Positions 2,180 to 31,221 of a stretch of DNA of 45,358 nt are shown in pieces; the first letter of the stretch is position 1, and each line of letters opens with the position of its first letter. The stretch covers positions 1 through 45,358 of the forward strand of contig CAYXVS010000001.1 in the NCBI GenBank assembly GCA_964468735.1. The letters are read 5' to 3'. Source of the DNA: an uncultured Anaerolineales bacterium. Lineage in GTDB: Bacteria > Chloroflexota > Anaerolineae > B4-G1 > SLSP01. The position numbers and the translations under genes were made by a program. Under the pieces are notes generated by a model. It saw nothing but the letters and a program-made list of their open reading frames with translations. It made no database searches and had not been told where the DNA came from.

Positions 2180-4894
2180 CTATGCCTGCGCCAGGGGCAG
2201 TTCCACAGTGAAGGTCGTTCCCTCTCCCTCTTGACTCTCCACAGTGATTTGCCCCCCGTGCAGAGCGACGAGTTGCCGGACGATGACCAATCCCAAGCCC
2301 GTGCCGGAGATTTGCTCCTCTTTGGGGAGATCGCCCCGGAAAAAGCGGTCAAAGATGTGCGGGAGTTCATCTTCCGGGATGCCAATGCCTGTATCGGCGA
2401 CGGTAATGACGGCCCAGGTACGCCCATCATCCTTGCGCAGCCCGGTAGAGAGGGCGATGCGCCCGCCTTCCGGCGTATAACGCAGCGCATTGCTCAGCAG
2501 ATTATCCAGGATCACCTCCAATTGACTCGGATCAACCAAGGCGATAACATTCTCCGGCGCCGGATGAACCTCCAAGAGCAATTTTTTATCCTCCGCCTGG
2601 GATTTGAAGCGCTCCTCAACGTAAGAGAGCGCGTGATTGAGGGAGGTCGGCTCAGGGTGCATCTCCACCCGCCCGGCATCGATGCGCGAGATCTGAAGGA
2701 TCCGCTCGATCAACTGGGCCTGCCAATCGGCCTGTTGCATCAAGCGGTCTATGTATTCCTCACGTCGTTCCGGCCGACCACGCTGCATCAGATCAGCATA
2801 GGCTTTGATCGCGCTGATAGGCGTCCGCAACTCGTGGGAGAGATTTTCGATGAAATCGGTCTTCATCCGCTCCAGCGCCTTGAGATGGCTGACATCGTGA
2901 ATGGCCACGACGGCCCGCGCGGCGTCCAGCGGCGCAGTTCCTTGAGCTTCGCGGGCCGGGGCGGCGACCGGCGCGCCGTTCAACTCCAGATCCAGCCCCG
3001 TCAACTCCAGCAGGGTCACGGTGGATTCGTTCTTGGGGTTCAAACTATCCCGCACGACATCTCGAATTGTCTCGCATAACTGTTCCGCCTCTTGGGGCGC
3101 CAACGTCTGCGAGAGCCACGCCTGTGCCACGGGATTGGCTTGGAGGATGTTGCCCGCCGCATCCGTGACGACGATGCCATCGGTGGTGCTGCGCAAAATC
3201 GCCCGCAGGCGCGCGTATTGCTCCTGTAACTCGACGGTGCGTTCTTGGACGCGCCGCTCTAATTCCTGATGCACCTGCGCGTTCTCGATGGCAATCGAGG
3301 CCCAGGCGGCCAACGGCTCCAGAACTTTCAAATCCTCCGTCGAGAAGCGATTGACCCTCGTATCTAACGTCTGCAACACGCCGATGACCCGATCCTCCAA
3401 GCGCAGGGGGACGCTGAGGATGGAGCGCGTGTGGATGCCGGTCTGGTCATCCACGGCCTTGAAGTGGCGCTGATCCTGTTGCGTGTCCCCGACGATCAAA
3501 TAGCGATTATGTTGCGCGACCCACCCGGCAATCCCCTCACCTGGGGCGAGCCGCCAACCGCGCACCACATCGCGCTTGGAGCCGCTGGCCATCCGACAGA
3601 CCAATACGCCGGTATCGAATTCGATCAACCAGATCGAGCTGGCGACGATGCCCAGGAGATGACGCATCTCCTCCAGCACCATCGCTAACACCTCATCCAA
3701 ATCTCGCGACGCGCTGAGCGTCTGACCGATCTCGTTGAGCACGGCCAACTCCCGATTGCGCTGCGCTAAGGCCGCCTCCGCCTCTTTGCGGTCCGTGATG
3801 TCGCGTAGCGTGCCGGTCAGGCTGATGAGGCGGCCCTCGGCGTCACGGCGCGGCCGGGGCGTGTCCTCGATCCAGCGCAAGCGCCCTTGATTATCGCGAA
3901 TTTGGAAAGTGTAGGCCGACATTTCCTCTACCCGCACGTTTTTCCATGCAGCGATGATCTCCGACCGCTCCTCTCCCGTCAACACCTCTTCCAACACCTC
4001 CAAAGCATCCCGCGAGATCATATCGGCCGGATCGGCGCCATAGCGGGAGATCTGCGGCGAGATGTAGGTCAAATTACCCGCGCTATCGACGGTGTAGATG
4101 ATGTCGTTGATGTTCTCCACCAACATCTGATACATCTCCTTGCTCTCCTGCAAGGCCTCTTCGGCTTCTTTGCGATCGGTGATGTCCCGCACGTAGACCA
4201 CCACGCGCGGCGCCCCATCCAGATCGATCAGCTTGGTTCGCACCTCGGTGGGGAAGATGGACCCATCTCGACGCCGGCCCAAGGCCTCCATCCAGACGCC
4301 GCCGGAGGCCAGCGAGGTTTCGATCACCTCCGGCAAGGTCGTCATAATCTCCTCCGGCACCAGATCCGCCACGCTCAGGCCGATCAGTTCAGCTTTGGGG
4401 ATGCCGTACAGCTCGCTGGCCTGCATGTTACACTCAAGCACCTCGCCTTTGATGGTCTCCACAAAAATCGCATCGGCGGAAACCTCGAAGAGCGCCCGAT
4501 AGCGCGCTTCTTTCTCGCGCAATGTCGCTTCTGCCCGCTGCCGCGCAATGGTCAGCGCATGAATAACCTCGGTGAGGATCACCGTACAAATCGTCAACAC
4601 GATGATGCTGCTCAAAGAGGCATTAAAGTCGCCTGAGACCTGCCGGGTCACCCAGATAGAGGTCAGAGCCAAGAGTACAAGCATCGTCAGGTAGAGCCAG
4701 CGCTTGAAAAAAAAGGCCATCACCACACAAGGCACGATCAAGAATAACAGGAGATTATCCCGCAGCCTAAAGGCGAGGATGGCCCAACTGCTGAAGAGCA
4801 ACGTGAGAAGATAAAGAAATAAGAAAATCGCCTGGGAGGAGGTTAAAACCGGGATGAGGTCGCGAACCTGCCAATGTCGAGCTTTCTTTTCCAT
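2180..4894 (-). CDS. Membrane-anchored PAS/GAF sensor histidine kinase
   Basis: 904-aa ORF. N-terminal hydrophobic helices, repeated PAS-type segments ending in ...RDITDRKEAE, a GAF-like block, the H-box LSHELRTPISAI and the ATPase boxes DTGIGI / GTGLGLVIV. Confidence 0.9.
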   Translation of the reverse strand: MEKKARHWQVRDLIPVLTSSQAIFLFLYLLTLLFSSWAILAFRLRDNLLLFLIVPCVVMAFFFKRWLYLTMLVLLALTSIWVTRQVSGDFNASLSSIIVLTICTVILTEVIHALTIARQRAEATLREKEARYRALFEVSADAIFVETIKGEVLECNMQASELYGIPKAELIGLSVADLVPEEIMTTLPEVIETSLASGGVWMEALGRRRDGSIFPTEVRTKLIDLDGAPRVVVYVRDITDRKEAEEALQESKEMYQMLVENINDIIYTVDSAGNLTYISPQISRYGADPADMISRDALEVLEEVLTGEERSEIIAAWKNVRVEEMSAYTFQIRDNQGRLRWIEDTPRPRRDAEGRLISLTGTLRDITDRKEAEAALAQRNRELAVLNEIGQTLSASRDLDEVLAMVLEEMRHLLGIVASSIWLIEFDTGVLVCRMASGSKRDVVRGWRLAPGEGIAGWVAQHNRYLIVGDTQQDQRHFKAVDDQTGIHTRSILSVPLRLEDRVIGVLQTLDTRVNRFSTEDLKVLEPLAAWASIAIENAQVHQELERRVQERTVELQEQYARLRAILRSTTDGIVVTDAAGNILQANPVAQAWLSQTLAPQEAEQLCETIRDVVRDSLNPKNESTVTLLELTGLDLELNGAPVAAPAREAQGTAPLDAARAVVAIHDVSHLKALERMKTDFIENLSHELRTPISAIKAYADLMQRGRPERREEYIDRLMQQADWQAQLIERILQISRIDAGRVEMHPEPTSLNHALSYVEERFKSQAEDKKLLLEVHPAPENVIALVDPSQLEVILDNLLSNALRYTPEGGRIALSTGLRKDDGRTWAVITVADTGIGIPEDELPHIFDRFFRGDLPKEEQISGTGLGLVIVRQLVALHGGQITVESQEGEGTTFTVELPLAQA

Positions 4895-4904
4895 AGTTCA
4901 GTCC

Positions 4905-7900
4905 TTACTGCGGACGCTTTAGCGCCTGGGCGATGACCGTAGCTAACTTCTCCAGATCGGGCGGCTTGGTCATCCACATGTGGAGATTATCAACTTCCAA
5001 CCCATTGAGATCCTTTTCGAGAGGATGGCCCGTCAACAAGATGACGGGGATCTCAATGTTCTGGGCCTGCATCGTGCGCAACAACGCCAATCCGCCCATC
5101 TCCGGCATCACGACATCGCTCAACACCAGATCGATCTCCGCCCCGCGCTGCGCTAAGATCTCAACGGCCTCCTTGCCATGATGGGCCACAAGCACCTCAT
5201 AAAGCAGCATCTTCAAGCTCTCCTGCAAGGCGGCGCGCGCCATCGCGTTGTCCTCCACCACAAGGATCGTCTCGCCCGCGCCCATCGCCAAAGCCGGCAG
5301 GGAGAACGTCTCCGCCGCCGCTTTCACCTCGGGCAGCGCGGGCAAATAGAGGATGAAGGTTGTGCCTGCGCCAACCTGCGTCTCCACATCGATGTAGCCC
5401 TCGTGCTGCTCGATGATGCTCTGCACCTGCGCCAATCCTAATCCGCTGCCCAAGGGCGCTTTGGTGGTGTAGAACGGCTCAAAGATGCGCGGGAGCACGT
5501 CGGGCGGGATGCCCTTGCCCGTATCCGCGATGGCGATGCGCACCCACGAACCGACATCCATCACGGGCAAGGGCGCCAGATCCTCCCGCGACACATGGAG
5601 GCGCGAAAGGGTAAATGTGAGAACGCCTCCATGGGACATCGCATCCCGGGCATTGATAGCCAGATTCATTATCATCTGCTGGATGCGCGTCGGGTCCGCC
5701 TGGATGGTGTAGTCTCCCTTGCCATAATCCAATTCAATGGTGATGTGTTCCGGCAACGTCCGCTCCAGCAGCTTCACCTGCTCCTTGAAGAAGGGTAACA
5801 GATCCAAGGGCATCCGCTCCAGCGTTGACCGCCGACTGAAATCCAAAATCTGCTGGATTAGTTGGGTGGCATGCCGCGCTTGTTGATTGATCGTCGTCAT
5901 GCGCTCCTGATCCGCATGAGAAAGTCGGTCGGAGCGGGCGGCCATCTGGGCGTAGAGCACGATGGTGGCCATGATGTTGTTGAAGTCGTGGGCGATGCCG
6001 GCGGTCAACTGGCCGACCGCGGCCAAGCGTTCCTGCTGACGCCCACGCCGTTGAACCCCACGGGCTTGGGTGACATCCTGGATGACCATCACCCAATTTT
6101 CCGCTCCGCTCTCTTTCTCGATGGGTCGCGCGATCACCTCGAAGATGCGCCCCTCGTATTCGATCTCGTGCCAGAGACCGTGGGTGGGCGGCGAGGTCAA
6201 CAAATCTTGGATGGGATGCTCACCCAGATGCGTGAGCGCCTCGCCTACTTTCTTCTCCGCCAAGAAGGCCAGGTGTTTCTCGGCGGTCGGGTTCGCCAGT
6301 TCGATTTTTAAATCATCTCGCAGCAGGAGCATACCTTCGGGCACCGTCTCCATAAGTTGACGGGTGCGCCGCGCCTGGGCCTGTACCTCTTCCAGTAAGC
6401 GCTGCCGCTCCTTCTCCGCCCGCTTGCGCTCGGTGATATCGCGCACGATGCTCAGCACCAGCGCTTCTCCGCGATGATCTATGCGGGAGAGGCTCACCTC
6501 CACCGGCACGAGCGTGCCATCCTGCCGCACGTCCCACGCCTCGAATGGACGGACACCGTACATGGCTAATTCCCGCTGAATGATACTCCCCTGATCGGCG
6601 GCTCGCGCTATCGCGCCCTTCACGACTTTGATGTCGTCCACGGTCATCGCAAGCAACGCCTCTCGCGTGTACCCCAGCAATTCGCACGCCCGTGGATTCA
6701 CATCCACAATCCGACTATCCGAGACGCGCTCCAAGAAGATGGCGTCATCCGCCTGCTCAAATAACATGCGATAGCGAGCTTCGCTCTCCCGCAACGCGGC
6801 TTCGGCCTGTTTGAGATCTGTGATATCGACGGCGACGCCCAACGCCACCCGCTCACCCGTGCTGGGCACGGTGACGGGCAACTTAGTCACTTGCAAAATC
6901 GCGACATACCCGTTTTTGTAGGTAAAGGTCTCCTCAGCGATAAATTTTTGCTGGTTGGTCTCGATAACTTCCCGATCCGCCGCGAGAAATATCTCCCACT
7001 CCGCTTCCGTGCCGCCGGCCAATTCAGTATAGGGCCGCCCCAGCAACGCTTGCGGCGAAAGGCCATGAGGCTCAGCCGCCGCCTGATTGGCCATCACATA
7101 TCGGCCTTGAATATCCTTGGCAAAGATCATATACGGCACGCTATCCAGCACGTGGCGCAGCCAAGCCTCGCTATCACGTAACGCCGCCTCCGCGCGCCGC
7201 CGCTCGGCCAGCTCCTGCTGGAGCGATTCGTAGAGACGCGCGTTCTGGATCGAGATCGAGGCGACGTTGGCGATGGCTTCTAAGAGATCAAGATCCTCCG
7301 CCGTAAAAGCATCAAGTTGGCAACTCTGCACCTGCATCACGCCGATCGTATCGCCGCCGATCTTCAGTGGCGCCAGGATGGCTGAATTGGTGCTCTGCTC
7401 CCTGACGGCCGGGGGCGGCGCTCCCTCCTCCACGCCACCCTTGTCCATGACAGTGTACTCCTTACCTCCCCCCTGACGCGACTTTCGCCAATCGGGGATG
7501 TAGAGCGGCTCTCCTGTGTGGATGACGCGGCTCTGGTTTCCCTGTCCGGCCTTCGCCAGCGGGATCGGCGGCAGTTCACTCACATCAAATGGCGCTTCGT
7601 TGTGCATCATAAATTCGGCATGGATCATATTCTGATCCCGGTCGTAGAACGAGATCAGAAAAGCCGAAACATCCATCAAATCACTGATGTGATCGTAAAT
7701 AGTTTGATAGATGGCGTCCAGATCCAACGTGTTGCCCATCGCGATAGCCAGTTGATGGACGGCGAGTTGTTGTTCCAAGAGACGCTGGATACGAGCTTCC
7801 GCATGCACGCGCTCATTAACATCACGCGAGACGCCCACCAAGCCGACCACCTCGCCGTTCTTGTCCTTGATGGGAACTTTGGTGGAGATCACCCAGCGGA

Positions 7901-8765: not shown

Positions 8766-8860
8766 TAGGTAGTTCCAGAAATTAAAACCTCCCCAACCTG
8801 ATGCTTTTTCATCAGAAAACAGGTCGTTTTTGGGAGATTTATTTTCTTGGAACGGCCTTA
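8766..8860 (+). repeat. ~96-nt palindromic interspersed element (MITE-like), copy 1
   Basis: TTAGGTAGTTCCAGAAATTAAAACCTCCCC...TGGGAGATTTATTTTCTTGGAACGGCCTTA. The two arms are imperfect reverse complements, with a central CTGATG/CATCAG hairpin. Near-identical to 17795-17890 and, in reverse complement, to 31125-31221. Confidence 0.8.
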
Positions 8861-11235: not shown

Positions 11236-12522
11236 TTATTCGGCGGCGGGATTCATCACGCGGCCCAAGAAGAGCACCGAGCCGGTCTGCGTATCGCGGA
11301 TGAGGTAGACGAAGGGCCGATCCACGGTCAGTTCGACGTCTGTCACCGGCATCGATGCCAAACCGACGACAACGGCGGTCGCGGCGGCGGCCTCGGTGCC
11401 TTCCTCATCCACGGCCACGAAGGCCTTGTGGAAGACGTCCGTGATCAGAAGATCGCGCGTGCCGTCCATCCCGGAGAAATCGGCGCGCTCGCGATCCATC
11501 GCATCGGGCATGCCCATCGCCTCCAACGTATCGGCCAGGCTAAACGAGGCATCATACTCGAATTTGGGCATCGTCAATGCGACGCCGCGCGTTTCCATAT
11601 CGGCCAAGATCGATTGCAGTTGCTCGCCGGAGAGGCCCTGCTCAAAAGCCTCGAATTCCCCGGCGTCCGGCACGATGATGACCATGCTGGCCTCGCCGCC
11701 GCGATAGGGCAGTTCGATGGCCTGATAGTTCGCGCCCTGCGCGTGGGGGATCATCTGCGGCTTGTTCCACGCCATCATCGGCGCCTCGACCTCGCTGCCG
11801 TCCACGAGCGTGAACGCGCCATCGCTGGTATTCTCTTTGGGAAAGGTGTGCATCCACTTGGCATTGAAGTAGATCGCGTTGGCCAAGACGAGGCGGGTCA
11901 GATCCGTGATGCCCCCCTTGGGGATCAAATCCTGGATCTTCTCCTCGGTCTGATCGCTGACCCAATCGTTAATCGCCTCGCGCGCGTCCTCCGGCGCGGT
12001 CTTGAAGCTGACCAAGCGCAATCCAGCGCCGTAGTGGCGGGCCAACAACTCCAGGAAGGCCTCGCGGAAATCGTACTCCTTCTCCGCCCACAGGGAGTTC
12101 GCGATGTGCAGGATGAATTCCTCATCACTCGCCTCTTCTCTCGCCTCATCGCCCGGCTCCAAGGCCAGATTCAGGGCGTTGAACGCCGGATGCAGCTCCT
12201 GTTGAGGCAAAGTGAAGTGCAGCGTCTCCGCCATTTGGGTCTCCGTCTCGCCGCGCGCGCCGGCATAGGTCATCGCCAGCGCCGTGGAAATGCTGTACGG
12301 CGAGAAGAAGAGATTGCCGTCGGTCCCGCGCAGTTCCTGATAGAGATCGGCGGCGAAGGCGGTGTTGCCCTCGACCAAGGCCGCCCTCTGTTCCTCGGAG
12401 ACATCGGGCGTGGTCTCGCGCGGCACATCCGCCTGCGCGACCTCGGCCTTCACCGACTGGGAACTGGGCATGCATCCTGTCATCAACACACTCACCGTTA
12501 ACAAAATCAACCAGATTCTCAT
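11236..12522 (-). CDS. Serpin-family serine protease inhibitor, probable lipoprotein
   Basis: 428-aa ORF. FSPYSISTALAMTYAGARGETETQM, reactive-centre-loop hinge EEGTEAAAATAVV and the C-terminal DRPFVYLIRD...GSVLFLGRV are classic serpin signatures. Signal/lipobox LLTVSVLMTGC. AAGGAGG upstream. Confidence 0.9.
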   Translation of the reverse strand: MRIWLILLTVSVLMTGCMPSSQSVKAEVAQADVPRETTPDVSEEQRAALVEGNTAFAADLYQELRGTDGNLFFSPYSISTALAMTYAGARGETETQMAETLHFTLPQQELHPAFNALNLALEPGDEAREEASDEEFILHIANSLWAEKEYDFREAFLELLARHYGAGLRLVSFKTAPEDAREAINDWVSDQTEEKIQDLIPKGGITDLTRLVLANAIYFNAKWMHTFPKENTSDGAFTLVDGSEVEAPMMAWNKPQMIPHAQGANYQAIELPYRGGEASMVIIVPDAGEFEAFEQGLSGEQLQSILADMETRGVALTMPKFEYDASFSLADTLEAMGMPDAMDRERADFSGMDGTRDLLITDVFHKAFVAVDEEGTEAAAATAVVVGLASMPVTDVELTVDRPFVYLIRDTQTGSVLFLGRVMNPAAE

Positions 12523-17794: not shown

Positions 17795-17890
17795 TAAGGT
17801 AGTTCCAGAAATTAAAACCTCCCAAACCGGATGCTTTTTCCTCAGAAAACTAGCTGTTTTTGGGAGATTTATTTTATTGGAACGGCCTAA
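17795..17890 (+). repeat. ~96-nt palindromic interspersed element (MITE-like), copy 2
   Basis: TAAGGTAGTTCCAGAAATTAAAACCTCCCAAACCGGATGCTTTTTCCTCAGAAAAC...TGGGAGATTTATTTTATTGGAACGGCCTAA. About 90% identical by eye to copy 1. Confidence 0.8.
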
Positions 17891-26230: not shown

Positions 26231-27294
26231 CCTTCCTCAAAGATAAATTTGTCCTGGAAAAAGTGACCTCACCGCCGGTGTGGATGCGCACCTTGATCCC
26301 CGTGCTGGCGCTCGTGGGTACCTTTATCCTCACCTCCGGGCTGATCCTCCTCTCTGGCGCGAATCCGCTGGAGGCCTACTACTACTTCCTAGTCGCGCCG
26401 CTCTCGACGCGCGTGGGCGTGTTGGAGGTGCTGGTGACCGCCACGCCGCTGATTTTGGCGGGCGTCGCGGTGACCTTCGCCTTCTCGGCGGGCTACTACA
26501 ACATCGGTGCGGAGGGGCAACTCTACGCCGGCGCGATCATGGCCGCGTGGTTGGGTACCGTGCTGGCCGGCGTCCCGTCCATCCTCGCCATCCCCCTCAT
26601 GCTGTTGGGCGGCTTCTTGGGCGGGATGGCGTGGGCCTTGATCCCGGCGCTCCTGCGTGTGAAGATGGCCGTCGACGAAGTGGTGACGACGCTGCTGCTC
26701 AACTCCGTGATGCTCTACATCGTCAGCGCGCTGTTGAACGGCCCCTGGCGCGATCCCGAATCGGGCTGGCCCCAATCCCCAGAGATCGAGATGTGCACGC
26801 GCCTGCCGAAGCTGATACCACGCTCACGGCTCAACCTGGGCTTCGTCATCGCCCTGCTCGCGCTGCTGATACTGTGGTTTGTGCTCACGCGCACGGGCTT
26901 CGGCCTGAAGATGCGGGCCGTCGGGCTGGGCAAGGCGGGCGCGCGCTTCGCCGGCGTCGAAGTGGAGCGCACGGTGCTCACCGCCGCGCTCATCAGCGGC
27001 GGCATAGCGGGCATCGTGGGCGTCTGCGAGGTGGCGGGCATTCAATTCCACCTCACCGGCGAAATCTCCCCCGGCTACGGCTATACGGGCATCATCATCG
27101 CCACGTTAGGCGCGCTGAACGCGCTGGGCGTGGGCGCGGCGGCGCTCTTCTTCGGCCTGGTCGATACGGGCGCGCAGACAGTGAGCCGCGCACTGGGCGT
27201 CCCGGTCTATTTGGGCGAGATCACCCAAGCGACGATGCTCCTGGTCACCCTGGGGATGTTCTTGCTGCAACGTTATCGCATTCGGAGGGCGTGA
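26227..27294 (+). CDS. ABC importer permease 1
   Basis: 355-aa polytopic ORF. It overlaps the ATPase stop by 4 nt. Typical BPD-2 type permease hydrophobicity. Confidence 0.85.
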   Translation: MTFLKDKFVLEKVTSPPVWMRTLIPVLALVGTFILTSGLILLSGANPLEAYYYFLVAPLSTRVGVLEVLVTATPLILAGVAVTFAFSAGYYNIGAEGQLYAGAIMAAWLGTVLAGVPSILAIPLMLLGGFLGGMAWALIPALLRVKMAVDEVVTTLLLNSVMLYIVSALLNGPWRDPESGWPQSPEIEMCTRLPKLIPRSRLNLGFVIALLALLILWFVLTRTGFGLKMRAVGLGKAGARFAGVEVERTVLTAALISGGIAGIVGVCEVAGIQFHLTGEISPGYGYTGIIIATLGALNALGVGAAALFFGLVDTGAQTVSRALGVPVYLGEITQATMLLVTLGMFLLQRYRIRRA

Positions 27295-28214
27295 TGGATA
27301 CATTTTTAGTCAACCTAATCGCGGCGACCTTACGAGTCGCCACGCCGTTGTTGTTAGCGGCGATTGGCGAGACCTACGCGGAGCGCGCGGGCATCCTGAA
27401 TCTGGGCATCGAGGGCACGATGTTCTTCGGCGCCTTCATCGGCTTTCTCGTCGGGGATCTCACCGGCTCGCTCTGGGTGGGCCTGCTGGCGGCCATCCTC
27501 AGCGGCGCGTTAGCCGGCCTGTTGATGGCGCTGCTCTCCGTCACCTTGGGCGTCAACCAGCACGTCTCCGGCCTGGGCATCACCCTGCTGCTGAGCGGAT
27601 TGGCGCTCTTCGGATTCCGCCTGCGCTACGGTGGGCGCTCGACGCCGCCGTCCATCGATCCATTTGGACAATGGGCGCCGCTGGCCAACGTGCCCATATT
27701 GCGCGTGCTCTTTCAACAGTACGCGCTGACCTACATCGCATTTCTCCTAATCGTGCCGCTGGCGTGGTGGCTGCTCTACCGCACCAGCTTCGGCCTCAAG
27801 ATCCGCGCGGTGGGCGAGAACCCGGAGGCCGCCGACGCGGCGGGCGTCAACGTCTTCGCAATCCGCTACCTGGCGCTGATGATCGGCGGCGCGCTGATGG
27901 GCGCGGGCGGCGCGTTCCTCTCCATCGCGCAGTTGGGCGCCTTCACCCACGGCATCATCGCCGGGCGGGGATGGGTCGCGCTGGCGCTGGTGATCTTCGG
28001 CAACTGGGACCCGCTCAAAGTGATGGGCGGCGCGTTGATCTTCGGCGGGACGTTTGCGCTGCAACTGCGCCTCCAGGCGATGGGCCTGCAACTCCCCGTC
28101 CCCTACGAGACCTTCTTAGCGCTGCCTTATCTGGTGACGATTGTCGCGCTGGTCATCGCCGGGCGGAACGCTTCGTATCCGGCGGCGCTGCTCCAGCCCT
28201 ATCGCCGGGAGTGA
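27294..28214 (+). CDS. ABC importer permease 2
   Basis: The real gene is the in-frame 3' part of track ORF 26280-28214, starting at ATG 27294 (MDTFLVNLIAATLRVATPLLLAAIGE...). Its start shares one nucleotide with the TGA of permease 1. Confidence 0.85.
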   Translation: MDTFLVNLIAATLRVATPLLLAAIGETYAERAGILNLGIEGTMFFGAFIGFLVGDLTGSLWVGLLAAILSGALAGLLMALLSVTLGVNQHVSGLGITLLLSGLALFGFRLRYGGRSTPPSIDPFGQWAPLANVPILRVLFQQYALTYIAFLLIVPLAWWLLYRTSFGLKIRAVGENPEAADAAGVNVFAIRYLALMIGGALMGAGGAFLSIAQLGAFTHGIIAGRGWVALALVIFGNWDPLKVMGGALIFGGTFALQLRLQAMGLQLPVPYETFLALPYLVTIVALVIAGRNASYPAALLQPYRRE

Positions 28215-28269
28215 TGGAGACGAGGTATATCGCGAACAACAGCTCTGGAGTCAAACAAGATAGAACATC

Positions 28270-29232
28270 ATGACCTCTAATCACAACAGACGAAACAAAT
28301 ACGAAAACTATCGTCTCAACCAGGTGACCAAGAGTGAGTTCTTCCATCAGAAACTTCACGAGTACGGCCTGTTGGAGATTGCCTATGCCATCGAGAGCGT
28401 GAAAGGCGAGGAACTGACGTGGGACAGAGAAGCCTTGGCCATTTCCCAAACCGCCTGGAACAAGATCATCCACCGAGGCATCAAGCCCGTTCGCGTCTTC
28501 GCGCATCCCTGGGTCTTGATCAACGTCGATAGATCCGTCGGCTACTATCAAAAGCTGGCGCTGGTCTCTCTCAAATCGATGATCAACATCGGCTTGACCA
28601 TCACGAGATATGAGACCGGTCGCAACAAGCGGCCAATAGATGAACAAAAGGCCCGCGATGTTGCTCGACGCCTCAACGAACTGATCAGCCGCCTTGTCGA
28701 ATCCGACGAAGAGATTGATCCCAGAGAATTCGACCTATGGCGTGGGATGACTGCCGGATCAACAGCGCAAGGCTCCTGGCAAAACGCAAAAGGAGATCGG
28801 ATGGAGGATGTCATCAAGGGGATGATCCGCCGCCGAATTCAGGACAAAGGCCTATTGCTCGCGCAAAGTGACGACGAGCGGGAGTTGCATCTCAAAGATG
28901 GCCGCCTCCTCGTGTGTGATAGTGAGCCGGATTTGGCCTTCTACGACTACGAAAAAGCACGTCACATCCTCATCGCCGTCGAGATCAAAGGCGGCATCGA
29001 CACCGCCGGCGTCCTCGAGCGCATCGGCGCAGTCATCAAGAGCCTGAGCCGCGCGAAACAGGACAATCCCAACGCCACCACCGTGCTTATCATCCCCAGG
29101 GTATCAATGACGGAGCAAGCCGAGCTTGAGCTGACCATCCATCAAGATGACATCGATCATTGGTTCGCGGTGGAAGATGTGCTCAATCAGGACAACGTCA
29201 GGCAACGGCTCTTCAAGATTTTGGGGATATGA
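28270..29232 (+). CDS. PD-(D/E)xK nuclease, type II restriction-endonuclease-like (possibly XcyI-like); no adjacent methyltransferase
   Basis: 320-aa ORF. Catalytic-looking SEPD(221)-x16-E(238)-I-K(240)GGID. G+C is visibly lower than in the flanks. The family assignment is from memory and not verified. Confidence 0.6.
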   Translation: MTSNHNRRNKYENYRLNQVTKSEFFHQKLHEYGLLEIAYAIESVKGEELTWDREALAISQTAWNKIIHRGIKPVRVFAHPWVLINVDRSVGYYQKLALVSLKSMINIGLTITRYETGRNKRPIDEQKARDVARRLNELISRLVESDEEIDPREFDLWRGMTAGSTAQGSWQNAKGDRMEDVIKGMIRRRIQDKGLLLAQSDDERELHLKDGRLLVCDSEPDLAFYDYEKARHILIAVEIKGGIDTAGVLERIGAVIKSLSRAKQDNPNATTVLIIPRVSMTEQAELELTIHQDDIDHWFAVEDVLNQDNVRQRLFKILGI

Positions 29233-29256
29233 TAAAAGCTGGGGTGCACAGACAAA

Positions 29257-29913
29257 ATGACAATTCAAAGCAGCGATCAAATTGGGGATACGATTCGTAA
29301 AGCGATGGTGTTCAACATCAACAACTGGCGTGAGGCGCCGATGAACGCAGATTCTCTTATCCAAACGGTGCAGGATTTCTTCGCGATTTTAGAGCAGCGC
29401 AAGATCGACTATGTTCTGGTGGGCGGCATCGCGCTGTTGCAGTACGTCGAAGGGCGCAATACGGAGGATCTGGATTTGCTGATGGCCGTCTCAGCGCTGG
29501 ATAAGCTGCCAGAACTGAAGATCGACCGCCGGGATATGTACTTCGTACACGCCCACTACGGTGATGTACCCATCGACATCCTCCTGACGCAAAATCCGCT
29601 GTTCAGAGAGGTGCAACGTCAATATACGCAAGTCAAGCATTTCCTTGATCGGGACATCACCTTGGCGACGGTGGAGGGCCTGTTGTTGCTCAAGCTCTAC
29701 GCGCTGCCCTCGCTGTATCGCCAGGGCGATTTTGCCCGCGTCGGCCTCTACGAAAATGACATCGCGACGCTGCTCCACTATTATCAGCCCGACGTCTCCA
29801 AATTATTAGACACGCTAGCCGCCTACGTCAGCGCCAACGATCTAGCCGAGATCAAGAGCATCGTCGAGGACATCCAGCACCGACTCAAGCGATTTAGGGA
29901 CAAATCACGATAG
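29257..29913 (+). CDS. Pol-beta-fold nucleotidyltransferase (MNT/DUF2204-like)
   Basis: 218-aa ORF. VLVGGIALLQYVEGRNTEDLDLLM fits hGG-x12-DhD. The later ATVEGLLLLKLYA...ENDIATLL is typical of small MNT-like NTases. The start is uncertain (alternative Met17 or Met29). Confidence 0.6.
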   Translation: MTIQSSDQIGDTIRKAMVFNINNWREAPMNADSLIQTVQDFFAILEQRKIDYVLVGGIALLQYVEGRNTEDLDLLMAVSALDKLPELKIDRRDMYFVHAHYGDVPIDILLTQNPLFREVQRQYTQVKHFLDRDITLATVEGLLLLKLYALPSLYRQGDFARVGLYENDIATLLHYYQPDVSKLLDTLAAYVSANDLAEIKSIVEDIQHRLKRFRDKSR

Positions 29914-29993
29914 GTCTCGATTTAGAAAATGCGGTGGAACGCGCCACCGTAGAAATCACACAATCACCATTGAAGCCACGAAAGGAGTCGACT

Positions 29994-30399
29994 ATGACAA
30001 ACCTACGCAAAGTTGAAGGCATTGGCGAGCAATATGCTCAAAAGTTAGCGGAGGCAGGCATCAAGACGACGGAAGCACTCCTGAAGAAGGGCGCCGATCC
30101 CCAAGGACGGTAAGGAGATCGCCGAGACGACCGGCCTCTCGCCGAAGCTGATCTTAGGCTGGGTAAATCGCGTCGATCTGTTCCGCATCAAGGGCGTGGG
30201 CGAGGAGTACGCCGACCTGTTAGAAGTCGCCGGCGTGGACACGGTGCCCGAACTGGCCCAGCACAATCCCGGCAACCTGTACCAGAAAATGGCTGAAGTC
30301 AACGAGGAGAAGAAGTTGGTGCGCCAACTGTCCACCGAAGCCAAGGTCGCGGATTGGGTCGCGCAGGCCAAGGAACTTCCGCGCAAGATCACGTACTGA
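29994..30399 (+). pseudogene. DUF4332 (tandem helix-hairpin-helix) gene interrupted by a 1-nt frameshift
   Basis: ATG 29994 (AAGGAG 7 nt upstream) gives MTNLRKVEGIGEQYAQKLAEAGIKTTEALLKKGADPQGR, then TAA at 30111-30113. The +1 frame from 30112 continues KEIAETTGLSPKLILGWVNRVDLFRIKGVGEEYADLLEVAGVDTVPELA...PRKITY to 30399. Together these form one typical DUF4332 protein. Confidence 0.75.
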
Positions 30400-30450
30400 T
30401 GTGTCCCCCTCGCCATTTTAGACGATGAGAATGGACGAGAGCTGTAGAGA

Positions 30451-30482
30451 AAGGCGCGGTCCATAAGGACCGCGCCTTTTTT
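30451..30482 (+). terminator. Strong intrinsic terminator after the DUF4332 gene
   Basis: AAGGCGCGGTCC-ATAA-GGACCGCGCCTT followed by TTTTTC. Confidence 0.85.
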
Positions 30483-31125: not shown

Positions 31126-31221
31126 TAGGCCGTTCCAAGAAAATAAACGTCCCAAAAACGAGTGGTTTTCTGAGGGAAAAGTATCAGGTTTGGGAGGTTT
31201 CAAATCCTGGAACTACCTTAG
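31125..31221 (-). repeat. ~96-nt palindromic interspersed element (MITE-like), copy 3 (reverse orientation, more diverged)
   Basis: The reverse complement reads CTAAGGTAGTTCCAGGATTTGAAACCTCCCAAACCTGATACTTTTCCCTCAGAAAACCACTCGTTTTTGGGACGTTTATTTTCTTGGAACGGCCTAA. Confidence 0.75.

Follow-up and report, generated by a model that had tools for sequence, protein, structure and literature searches.

The 45,358-nt stretch of DNA analyzed here (the window; contig CAYXVS010000001.1 of an uncultured Anaerolineales bacterium) carries two adjacent genes, one encoding a putative restriction endonuclease (gene 1, designated R) and one a putative nucleotidyltransferase (NTase; gene 2). Our analysis indicates, with a probability of roughly 0.8, that a conventional type II restriction-modification (R-M) cassette has left its remnant here, beside an unrelated NTase gene, and that the pair is not a new two-gene system. 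The ancestral cassette would have had the order methyltransferase gene (M) then R, flanked on one side by the operon of an ATP-binding cassette (ABC) importer and on the other by a resident NTase-fold gene. The cognate PF01555 (N4-C/N6-A) M gene, immediately upstream of R and slightly overlapping it, would then have been deleted, leaving R 52 nt behind a permease gene, where it would probably be transcribed by read-through of the importer operon. Gene 2 would be an independent solitary gene and no partner of R. Purifying selection would most likely have kept acting on R after M was lost, and R would be tolerated either (i) through protection by a methyltransferase whose gene lies elsewhere in the genome; or (ii) through an attenuated or altered activity, with two N-terminal substitutions (W14Y and D17N) and an insertion in the catalytic hairpin as the candidate source of attenuation. 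These two means of tolerance are about equally plausible. As R is intact and likely under purifying selection, it probably still has some function. An earlier note, made from the sequence alone, had proposed instead that the NTase holds the nuclease in check in place of DNA methylation.

The main features of the locus are listed below by their coordinates in the window.

27294..28217, + strand: second permease gene of the ABC importer (BPD_transp_2; Pfam PF02653, E = 2e-41)
28218..28269, + strand: junction at the putative M deletion, from blastn against the related contig L008; R now lies 52 nt past the permease gene
28270..29232, + strand: R, a putative XcyI-family type II restriction endonuclease gene (PF09571), solitary and intact, 320 aa
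28309..28320, + strand: codons 14-17 of R with W14Y and D17N, from the alignment of family members
28930..28989, + strand: catalytic core of R, D221...E238-x-K240, including a tandem duplication
29257..29913, + strand: gene 2, a putative 218-aa NTase of the polymerase beta (Pol-beta) fold from an uncurated family, by motif, weak hidden Markov model match, and predicted fold

Throughout, L-numbers (e.g., L007, L008, L020, L180, L181, and L182) label homologous contigs or loci that were compared with the window, and alleles of R without an adjoining M are termed M-less.

A putative XcyI-family endonuclease gene that stands without its methyltransferase

At the level of sequence, gene 1 was confirmed to encode a PD-(D/E)xK type II restriction endonuclease (REase) of the XcyI family, as the earlier note had guessed: the protein scored 40.4 bits with Pfam RE_XcyI (PF09571), for which the cut-off is 25, and residues 58-268 were covered. 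Homologues numbered 1004, with PF09571 present in 120/120 of those listed, and several bear the NCBI label 'XcyI family restriction endonuclease'. The nuclease core that had been read from the sequence, D221-x16-E238-x-K240 followed by GGID, also stood. D221, E238, and K240 were invariant in alignments of 38 and of 118 sequences and all three are kept in the window, where R retains 74 of the 76 positions conserved at 98% or more (the catalytic triad among them). A BsoBI-like fold is predicted from an AlphaFold (AF2) model based on 38 sequences (predicted local distance difference test score, pLDDT, of 76 overall and >86 in the C-terminal catalytic domain), for which the sole significant match in the PDB was BsoBI (1dc1; E = 3e-5, probability 1.0).

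R homologues were found to be closely linked to a DNA methyltransferase (MTase) gene. Each homologous locus that was inspected had a PF01555 (N6_N4) MTase gene of 450-510 aa directly upstream on the same strand. A survey of 80 metagenomic R loci followed, 71 of them with at least 600 nt of upstream sequence and 46 with at least 700 nt downstream. In 71/71 loci with sufficient upstream sequence an M homologue ended no more than 200 nt before the R start. In agreement with the earlier note, which had seen no methyltransferase nearby, a DNA MTase was not detected in the 45-kb window either by tblastn with the M protein of L008 (noise only) or by Pfam scans of 30 large open reading frames (ORFs). 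The arrangement that defines a complete type II R-M system, M beside the REase gene, was therefore present in 71/71 loci and in L008 but absent from the window. What the window does have are the attributes of a solitary type II REase gene: full length, orthologues in complete systems, and a neighborhood without M.

Apparent deletion of the methyltransferase gene

The syntenic relative L008 has the gene order permease, M (511 aa), R, gene 2, DUF4332, and cinA, and its R is 92% identical to that of the window. By blastn, positions 1-1444 of L008 correspond to 26796-28238 of the window and positions 3021-5187 to 28266-30439, such that a 1576-nt L008 segment with M corresponds to 27 nt in the window. 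Nearly the whole of the L008 M gene, a 511-aa PF01555 MTase gene whose final few codons overlap the R start, falls inside this segment. Because 27 nt in the window take the place of the M segment of syntenic L008, the orphan state of R appears to arise from deletion of M. The permease-R junction without M was also found in three other assemblies, L007 (R 99% identical) and L180/L181 (R 92% identical). A second contig with M, L182, has the order permease-M-R-gene 2, and the ORF upstream of its R matches the C-terminal end of the L008 M protein exactly (R 92-93% identical for L008 and L182). L020, the species representative nearest to the window, was without M and without the entire ABC operon, and its Hsp70 gene abuts R. 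The TPR-GrpE-Hsp70 genes as found in L020 stand upstream of the importer in the window, and L020 appears by this comparison to carry a second, larger deletion that joins Hsp70 to R. The non-coding permease-R junction was only 80% identical between the window and L181, which would make the deletion old in comparison with the separation of these lineages. From the permease gene through R to gene 2, neither a terminator on the + strand nor a sigma-70-like promoter was predicted in the spacers; thus, read-through from the importer operon into R is plausible.

Although L007 was 99% identical to the window, its two ends consist of low-G+C sequence unrelated to it, at 1-89 and at 3685-3837 of the contig (corresponding to 25652 and 29246 in the window). 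On the 3′ side the two sequences part 13 nt past the R stop codon, and gene 2 is not next to R on this contig. Neither unmatched end had a match among the sequences compared in this analysis. These breaks could stem from strain variation, from an insertion, or from chimerism of the assembly.

State of the solitary endonuclease

The W14Y and D17N substitutions were common to all four M-less alleles (window, L007, L181, and L020). Among 113 other family members W14 was conserved at 100% and D17 at 99%, and both residues are kept in the M-containing alleles L008 and L182. In addition, a 6-nt tandem duplication (TACGAC followed by TACGAA) at 28948-28953 adds Y227-E228 to R, giving a D-to-E spacing of 16 residues instead of 14. 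The two added residues were confined to the window/L007 allele and, in the predicted model, sit in a hairpin between strands 222-226 and 232-239. The alleles are given below with their deviations, counted at columns that are at least 95% conserved in the R family.

Window: M absent; 4 deviations; private change Y227-E228 insertion (also in L007)
L007: M absent; 5 deviations; private change Q18H, plus the Y227-E228 insertion
L181: M absent; 3 deviations; private change R259H
L020: M absent; 3 deviations; private change S169A
L008: M present; 0 deviations; no private change
L182: M present; 0 deviations; no private change

The R ORF was full length in all four M-less alleles, and the catalytic triad was intact in all alleles. 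Pairwise dN/dS (ratio of non-synonymous to synonymous substitution rates) was ~0.08-0.17 for R, and 0.08-0.14 for R of the window against its relatives, with a value of 0.079 for the window and L181, which share the M-less junction. These two differ by 26 non-synonymous changes, compared with a neutral expectation of roughly 100 over the same time span as the ~20% divergence of their shared non-coding junction. Polarized by parsimony, the ratio of non-synonymous to synonymous changes (N:S) was 7:16 for L181, 13:17 for L020, 11:52 for the window stem, and 1:17 for the M-containing stem; the counts on the M-less branches suggest some relaxation of selection, which is not significant.

We considered whether R is instead dead and decaying, W14Y/D17N (with the Y227-E228 insertion in the window) having inactivated it and thereby permitted the loss of M, and its intact look being a matter of recency. 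We regard this as quite unlikely. Each M-less allele does share changes at two otherwise invariant positions and add a private change at another, the neighboring DUF4332 gene is frameshifted in the window, and N:S ratios are higher on the M-less branches. Full-length ORFs were nonetheless found in all four M-less alleles, which represent at least three diverged lineages and each keep the catalytic triad, and over the time in which the junction diverged by ~20% a neutral R would have gained ~100 non-synonymous changes and some stops or frameshifts, whereas 26 such changes were seen relative to L181.

That R has been domesticated, with a new nuclease role (nicking or repair) or an altered specificity for which no M is needed, is a tentative alternative on the unlikely side. 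It would fit with purifying selection on R, which appears to continue past the loss of M, and with the W14/D17 changes, which lie in a predicted long N-terminal helix and are common to all M-less alleles; a similar suggestion has been made before for HpaII-like solitary restriction endonucleases in Bacteroides (PMC3488263). However, there is no direct sign of a new function, the same data fit an ordinary R that is protected by a methyltransferase encoded elsewhere, and the association of Y14/N17 with M loss may be due simply to physical linkage, as the codons are ~90 nt from the junction. A narrower version, in which an orphan XcyI/BsoBI-like nuclease marked by W14Y/D17N would have been domesticated in a small Anaerolineales clade, with selection maintaining a weakened or new activity after M was lost, and would conceivably cooperate with or be modulated by the downstream NTase, is unlikely.

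Several points weigh against a decayed R-M cassette whose endonuclease is still maintained. First, no M coding remnant was recognizable at the junction, where similarity was weak and unconvincing, and we infer the direction of the change (loss and not gain) from the universality of the M-R arrangement in the family. Second, the survey for a methyltransferase spans the 45 kb of the window, and the gene of a protecting enzyme encoded elsewhere would lie outside that span. Third, the non-synonymous excess on the M-less branches was not significant (31:85 versus 1:17, Fisher p = 0.07). Fourth, the first 120-200 nt of R, in which Y14/N17 lie, unite all M-less alleles, whereas the gene body nests the M-containing alleles among the M-less ones; this discordance between the 5′ end and the body implies that recombination moved the M-less junction and the R 5′ end between lineages, and part of the low dN/dS may accordingly predate the loss of M.

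The downstream nucleotidyltransferase gene

Both ORFs were present on the same strand as the earlier note had them, at 28270-29232 (+, 320 aa) and 29257-29913 (+, 218 aa), but the spacer from the R stop codon to the gene 2 start measured 24 nt and not 25. Of the description of gene 2 in that note, the Pol-beta fold held while the motif needed correction, as the residues read GG-x13-DLD and not GG-x12-DLD. Near-invariant residues of the family are G56-G57...D71-x-D73, K146, R155, E166, and D168. Homologues numbered >5000, with ~72% identity across Anaerolineales and beyond, and formed 630 clusters at 50% identity. Matches to curated families were weak. Gene 2 reached 13.6 bits against DUF6036 (PF19502; cut-off 23.6, E = 0.058), with only residues 45-81 aligned, and the best below-cut-off E-values among 34 family members were 2e-5 for NTP_transf_5, 7.9e-5 for AbiEii, and 3e-4 for DUF6036. 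Weak AbiEii (PF08843) matches occurred in 18 of these 34 diverse members; gene 2 of the window had no match to PF08843 at E ≤ 1 but was matched by the AbiEii models of PADLOC at E ~1e-3. For PF01909 (NTP_transf_2), gene 2 and 21 close homologues had no match at E ≤ 1, and the 34-member set, 31 of whose members are further, more diverse ones, had no match at E ≤ 0.1. The structural model of gene 2 (pLDDT 58, poor in the NTase core) had its best fold matches to the MenT1 toxin, the NTase-like protein 5uvd, and ANT(2'')-Ia; the match to MenT1 had an E-value of 2e-5 from this low-confidence model, and profile searches of PDB sequences weakly agreed with the fold matches. Gene 2 thus resembles the AbiEii/MenT/DUF6036 group of Pol-beta-fold NTases and, with no PF01909 match, is not of the MNT kind to which it had been assigned.

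The surroundings of gene 2 homologues were compared by clustering of ORFs within 3 kb. No conserved neighbor was found in 80 species-representative loci: the largest neighbor cluster, of generic ABC ATPases, was present in 9 of the 80, and annotated homologues lie in ordinary and varied gene contexts. There was no cognate antitoxin gene (AbiEi/MenA) directly upstream of gene 2 and no conserved upstream gene; neither was a conserved HEPN (HepT) partner found in the 80 loci, the neighbor in the window being the PD-(D/E)xK REase gene. A search for phage or plasmid relatives of gene 2 found none. Because R is missing from 79 of the 80 species and there is no conserved neighbor, gene 2 appears from these comparisons to be an independent solitary gene without toxin-antitoxin-like pairing.

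These data bear on the proposal that R works with the NTase as a two-gene toxin-antitoxin or defense module in which nucleotidylylation of the nuclease replaces DNA methylation. Such a system would, if true, have been a new defense architecture. In the window the two genes are on the same strand, 24 nt apart, with no terminator predicted between them. Their adjacency persists in the close relatives L008, L020, and L180, R stays intact without M, and gene 2 retains its NTase catalytic residues. The comparative evidence opposes the proposal, and we consider it highly improbable. A gene 2 homologue was downstream of R in 0/46 R loci, and R was within 6 kb of gene 2 in 1/80 species-representative loci (L020 only). 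The co-occurrence statistics called for in the earlier note, which had held beforehand that a lack of co-occurrence in other genomes would speak against the idea, thus place the pairing in one narrow lineage. Even there, the order M-R-gene 2 in L008 and L182 indicates that gene 2 adjoined R before M was lost, and it is already beside R in alleles that still carry M. On L007, 99% identical to the window, the departure of the sequence 13 nt past the R stop leaves gene 2 not next to R. Finally, gene 2 looks closer to the toxin-type NTases AbiEii and MenT than to MntA, and PADLOC recognized no system of the nuclease-NTase kind.

Gene 2 homologues showed further features of their own in the loci examined (L020-L099, with the gene at about 6001-6654 of each locus). 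In 72 species their median G+C was 0.415 versus 0.538 in the flanks, and in L043 the gene lies in a sharply bounded 1.1-kb patch (5550-6700) with a G+C of 0.36 versus 0.65. Many loci have conserved non-coding flanks (e.g., at 5939 and 6664 of L034). Upstream, GTTAGCCACCT lies ~62 nt before the gene and is followed by a TGn/-10-like TTTTATGCTACACT and AGGA; its inverted copy, AGGTGGCTAAC, comes ~10 nt past the stop codon. These flanks are missing from the window, L008, and L020. Where flanked in this way, the homologue looks like a self-contained mobile single-gene unit. A reading of the flanks as integron attC sites was rejected, as 91 nt downstream of the gene in four loci folded like shuffled sequence (z -0.1 to +0.65), and an integron cassette reading was set aside as the repeat is not arrayed in the loci. 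In three of the 80 loci (L025, L043, and L062), the gene 2 homologue is closely preceded by a true small MNT-type NTase gene (GSxxRG...SDxD, ~105 aa), which in L043 (5691-6017) shares the low-G+C patch with it. A tyrosine recombinase gene is present 51 nt upstream in L062 and L066. These neighbors indicate that gene 2 is sometimes in mobile or toxin-antitoxin-rich regions.

Comparison with known systems

With the XcyI-family type II R-M systems (PF09571 and PF01555), R of the window shares its length and its PD...ExK-GGID core, and the M-then-R order of that family is found in a syntenic relative. Unlike those systems, the window is without M, two family-invariant N-terminal residues of R are changed, and R has a unique 2-aa insertion in the catalytic hairpin. 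The predicted model of R (pLDDT 76) also shares with BsoBI (1dc1; type IIP, C^YCGRG) a helical N-terminal part ahead of the PD-(D/E)xK domain at the C-terminus, although identity is only ~15% and the TM-score 0.36.

Solitary type II restriction endonuclease genes with orthologues that follow an M gene form a class already on record (PMC3488263; PMC4176335). Ershova et al. (2012) analyzed 272 such genes, with M placed upstream of R in the orthologous systems, and offered as explanations an MTase elsewhere, lost expression, inactivity, or changed function (PMC3488263); solitary or orphan REase genes are also treated by Oliveira et al. (2014) (PMC4176335). Like the published cases, R of the window is full length with no M nearby, and the published explanations apply to it as well. 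Unlike them, the deletion is directly visible against a syntenic M-containing allele, and the orphan allele is common to several diverged lineages. A solitary R is thus a known kind of gene and opens no new field; yet the locus offers a clear natural case of a type II restriction gene that outlives its methyltransferase. With M-containing and M-less alleles at one chromosomal site in close relatives, and with changes at invariant residues that track the M-less state, it is a convenient system in which to study cell survival after M loss and the residues that modulate REase toxicity.

With AbiEii/MenT (DUF1814) and DUF6036, gene 2 shares the hGG-x13-DxD and K-L-x-A...R motifs, and its fold matches to MenT1 (8an4/8an5), 5uvd, and ANT(2'')-Ia derive from a model of low confidence in the NTase core. 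Its matches to AbiEii/MenT/DUF6036 nevertheless lie below every curated cut-off, and it has no AbiEi- or MenA-like partner. To the type VII toxin-antitoxin system HepT/MntA, the sole likeness is one Pol-beta-fold NTase component. MntA is about half the size of the 218-aa gene 2 protein, and gene 2 differs from it in having neither a PF01909 match nor the GSxxRG motif; there is no HEPN partner, and the neighbor of gene 2 encodes a PD-(D/E)xK DNase.

According to its Pfam description, XcyI cuts C^CCGGG. Because the PF09571 match is remote (40 bits), the recognition sequence of R is not inferable from it. CCCGGG occurs twice in the window compared with 10.6 expected under a Markov model, but this avoidance was uninformative as a pointer to R specificity, since many other palindromes are equally depleted. 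Across the whole window, strongly avoided 6-bp palindromes (observed versus expected) include ACGCGT (0 versus 11.4), CTGCAG (0 versus 7.5), GAGCTC (0 versus 8.1), GGGCCC (1 versus 10.9), TCCGGA (1 versus 9.9), and CCGCGG (3 versus 24.6). Such broad avoidance suggests long exposure to many restriction systems.

Base composition and other elements of the window

The G+C content is 0.538 for gene 1 and 0.533 for gene 2, compared with 0.65-0.70 for the flanking genes; the G+C at third codon positions (GC3) is 0.69 and 0.71, respectively, compared with 0.78-0.89 for the upstream ABC importer genes and downstream cinA. The drop in G+C reported in the earlier note is therefore real, but its extent of ~1.7 kb was too short, as the low-G+C block continues past gene 2 and through a DUF4332 gene to ~30500. 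The permease gene (27294..28217), which is syntenic with L008, L007, and L181, forms its left border. Toward the right end are the following features.

29994..30399, + strand: DUF4332 gene, with a disrupting +1 frameshift near 30109 in the window
30453..30482, + strand: G+C-rich hairpin then a T run, read from the sequence in the alignment

At the frameshift near 30109 the window reads GGACGGTAAGG while relatives read GGAC-GCAAGG. The DUF4332 gene (helix-hairpin-helix) is intact, at 134 aa, in L008 and L020, and the frameshift in the window is either a pseudogene mutation or a sequencing error. From its sequence, the hairpin with T run is likely the terminator at which the low-G+C block ends.

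Scans of the window against Rfam and for tRNA genes gave no matches. A dispersed ~95-nt repeat with internal inverted symmetry (…GGCCGTTCCAAGAAAATAAA.CTCCCAAAAAC…GGTTTGGGAGGTTTTAAATCCTGGAACTACC…) occurs in three copies in the window, at 31127-31216 (+), 8769-8858 (-), and 17799-17888 (-), and L008 has an extra copy (5186-5275) between DUF4332 and cinA. It resembles a miniature inverted-repeat transposable element (MITE) or a repetitive extragenic palindromic (REP) element. A bacterial serpin gene (11236-12522, - strand; PF00079, E = 2e-116) was also found amid sensor-kinase and nucleoside-metabolism genes.

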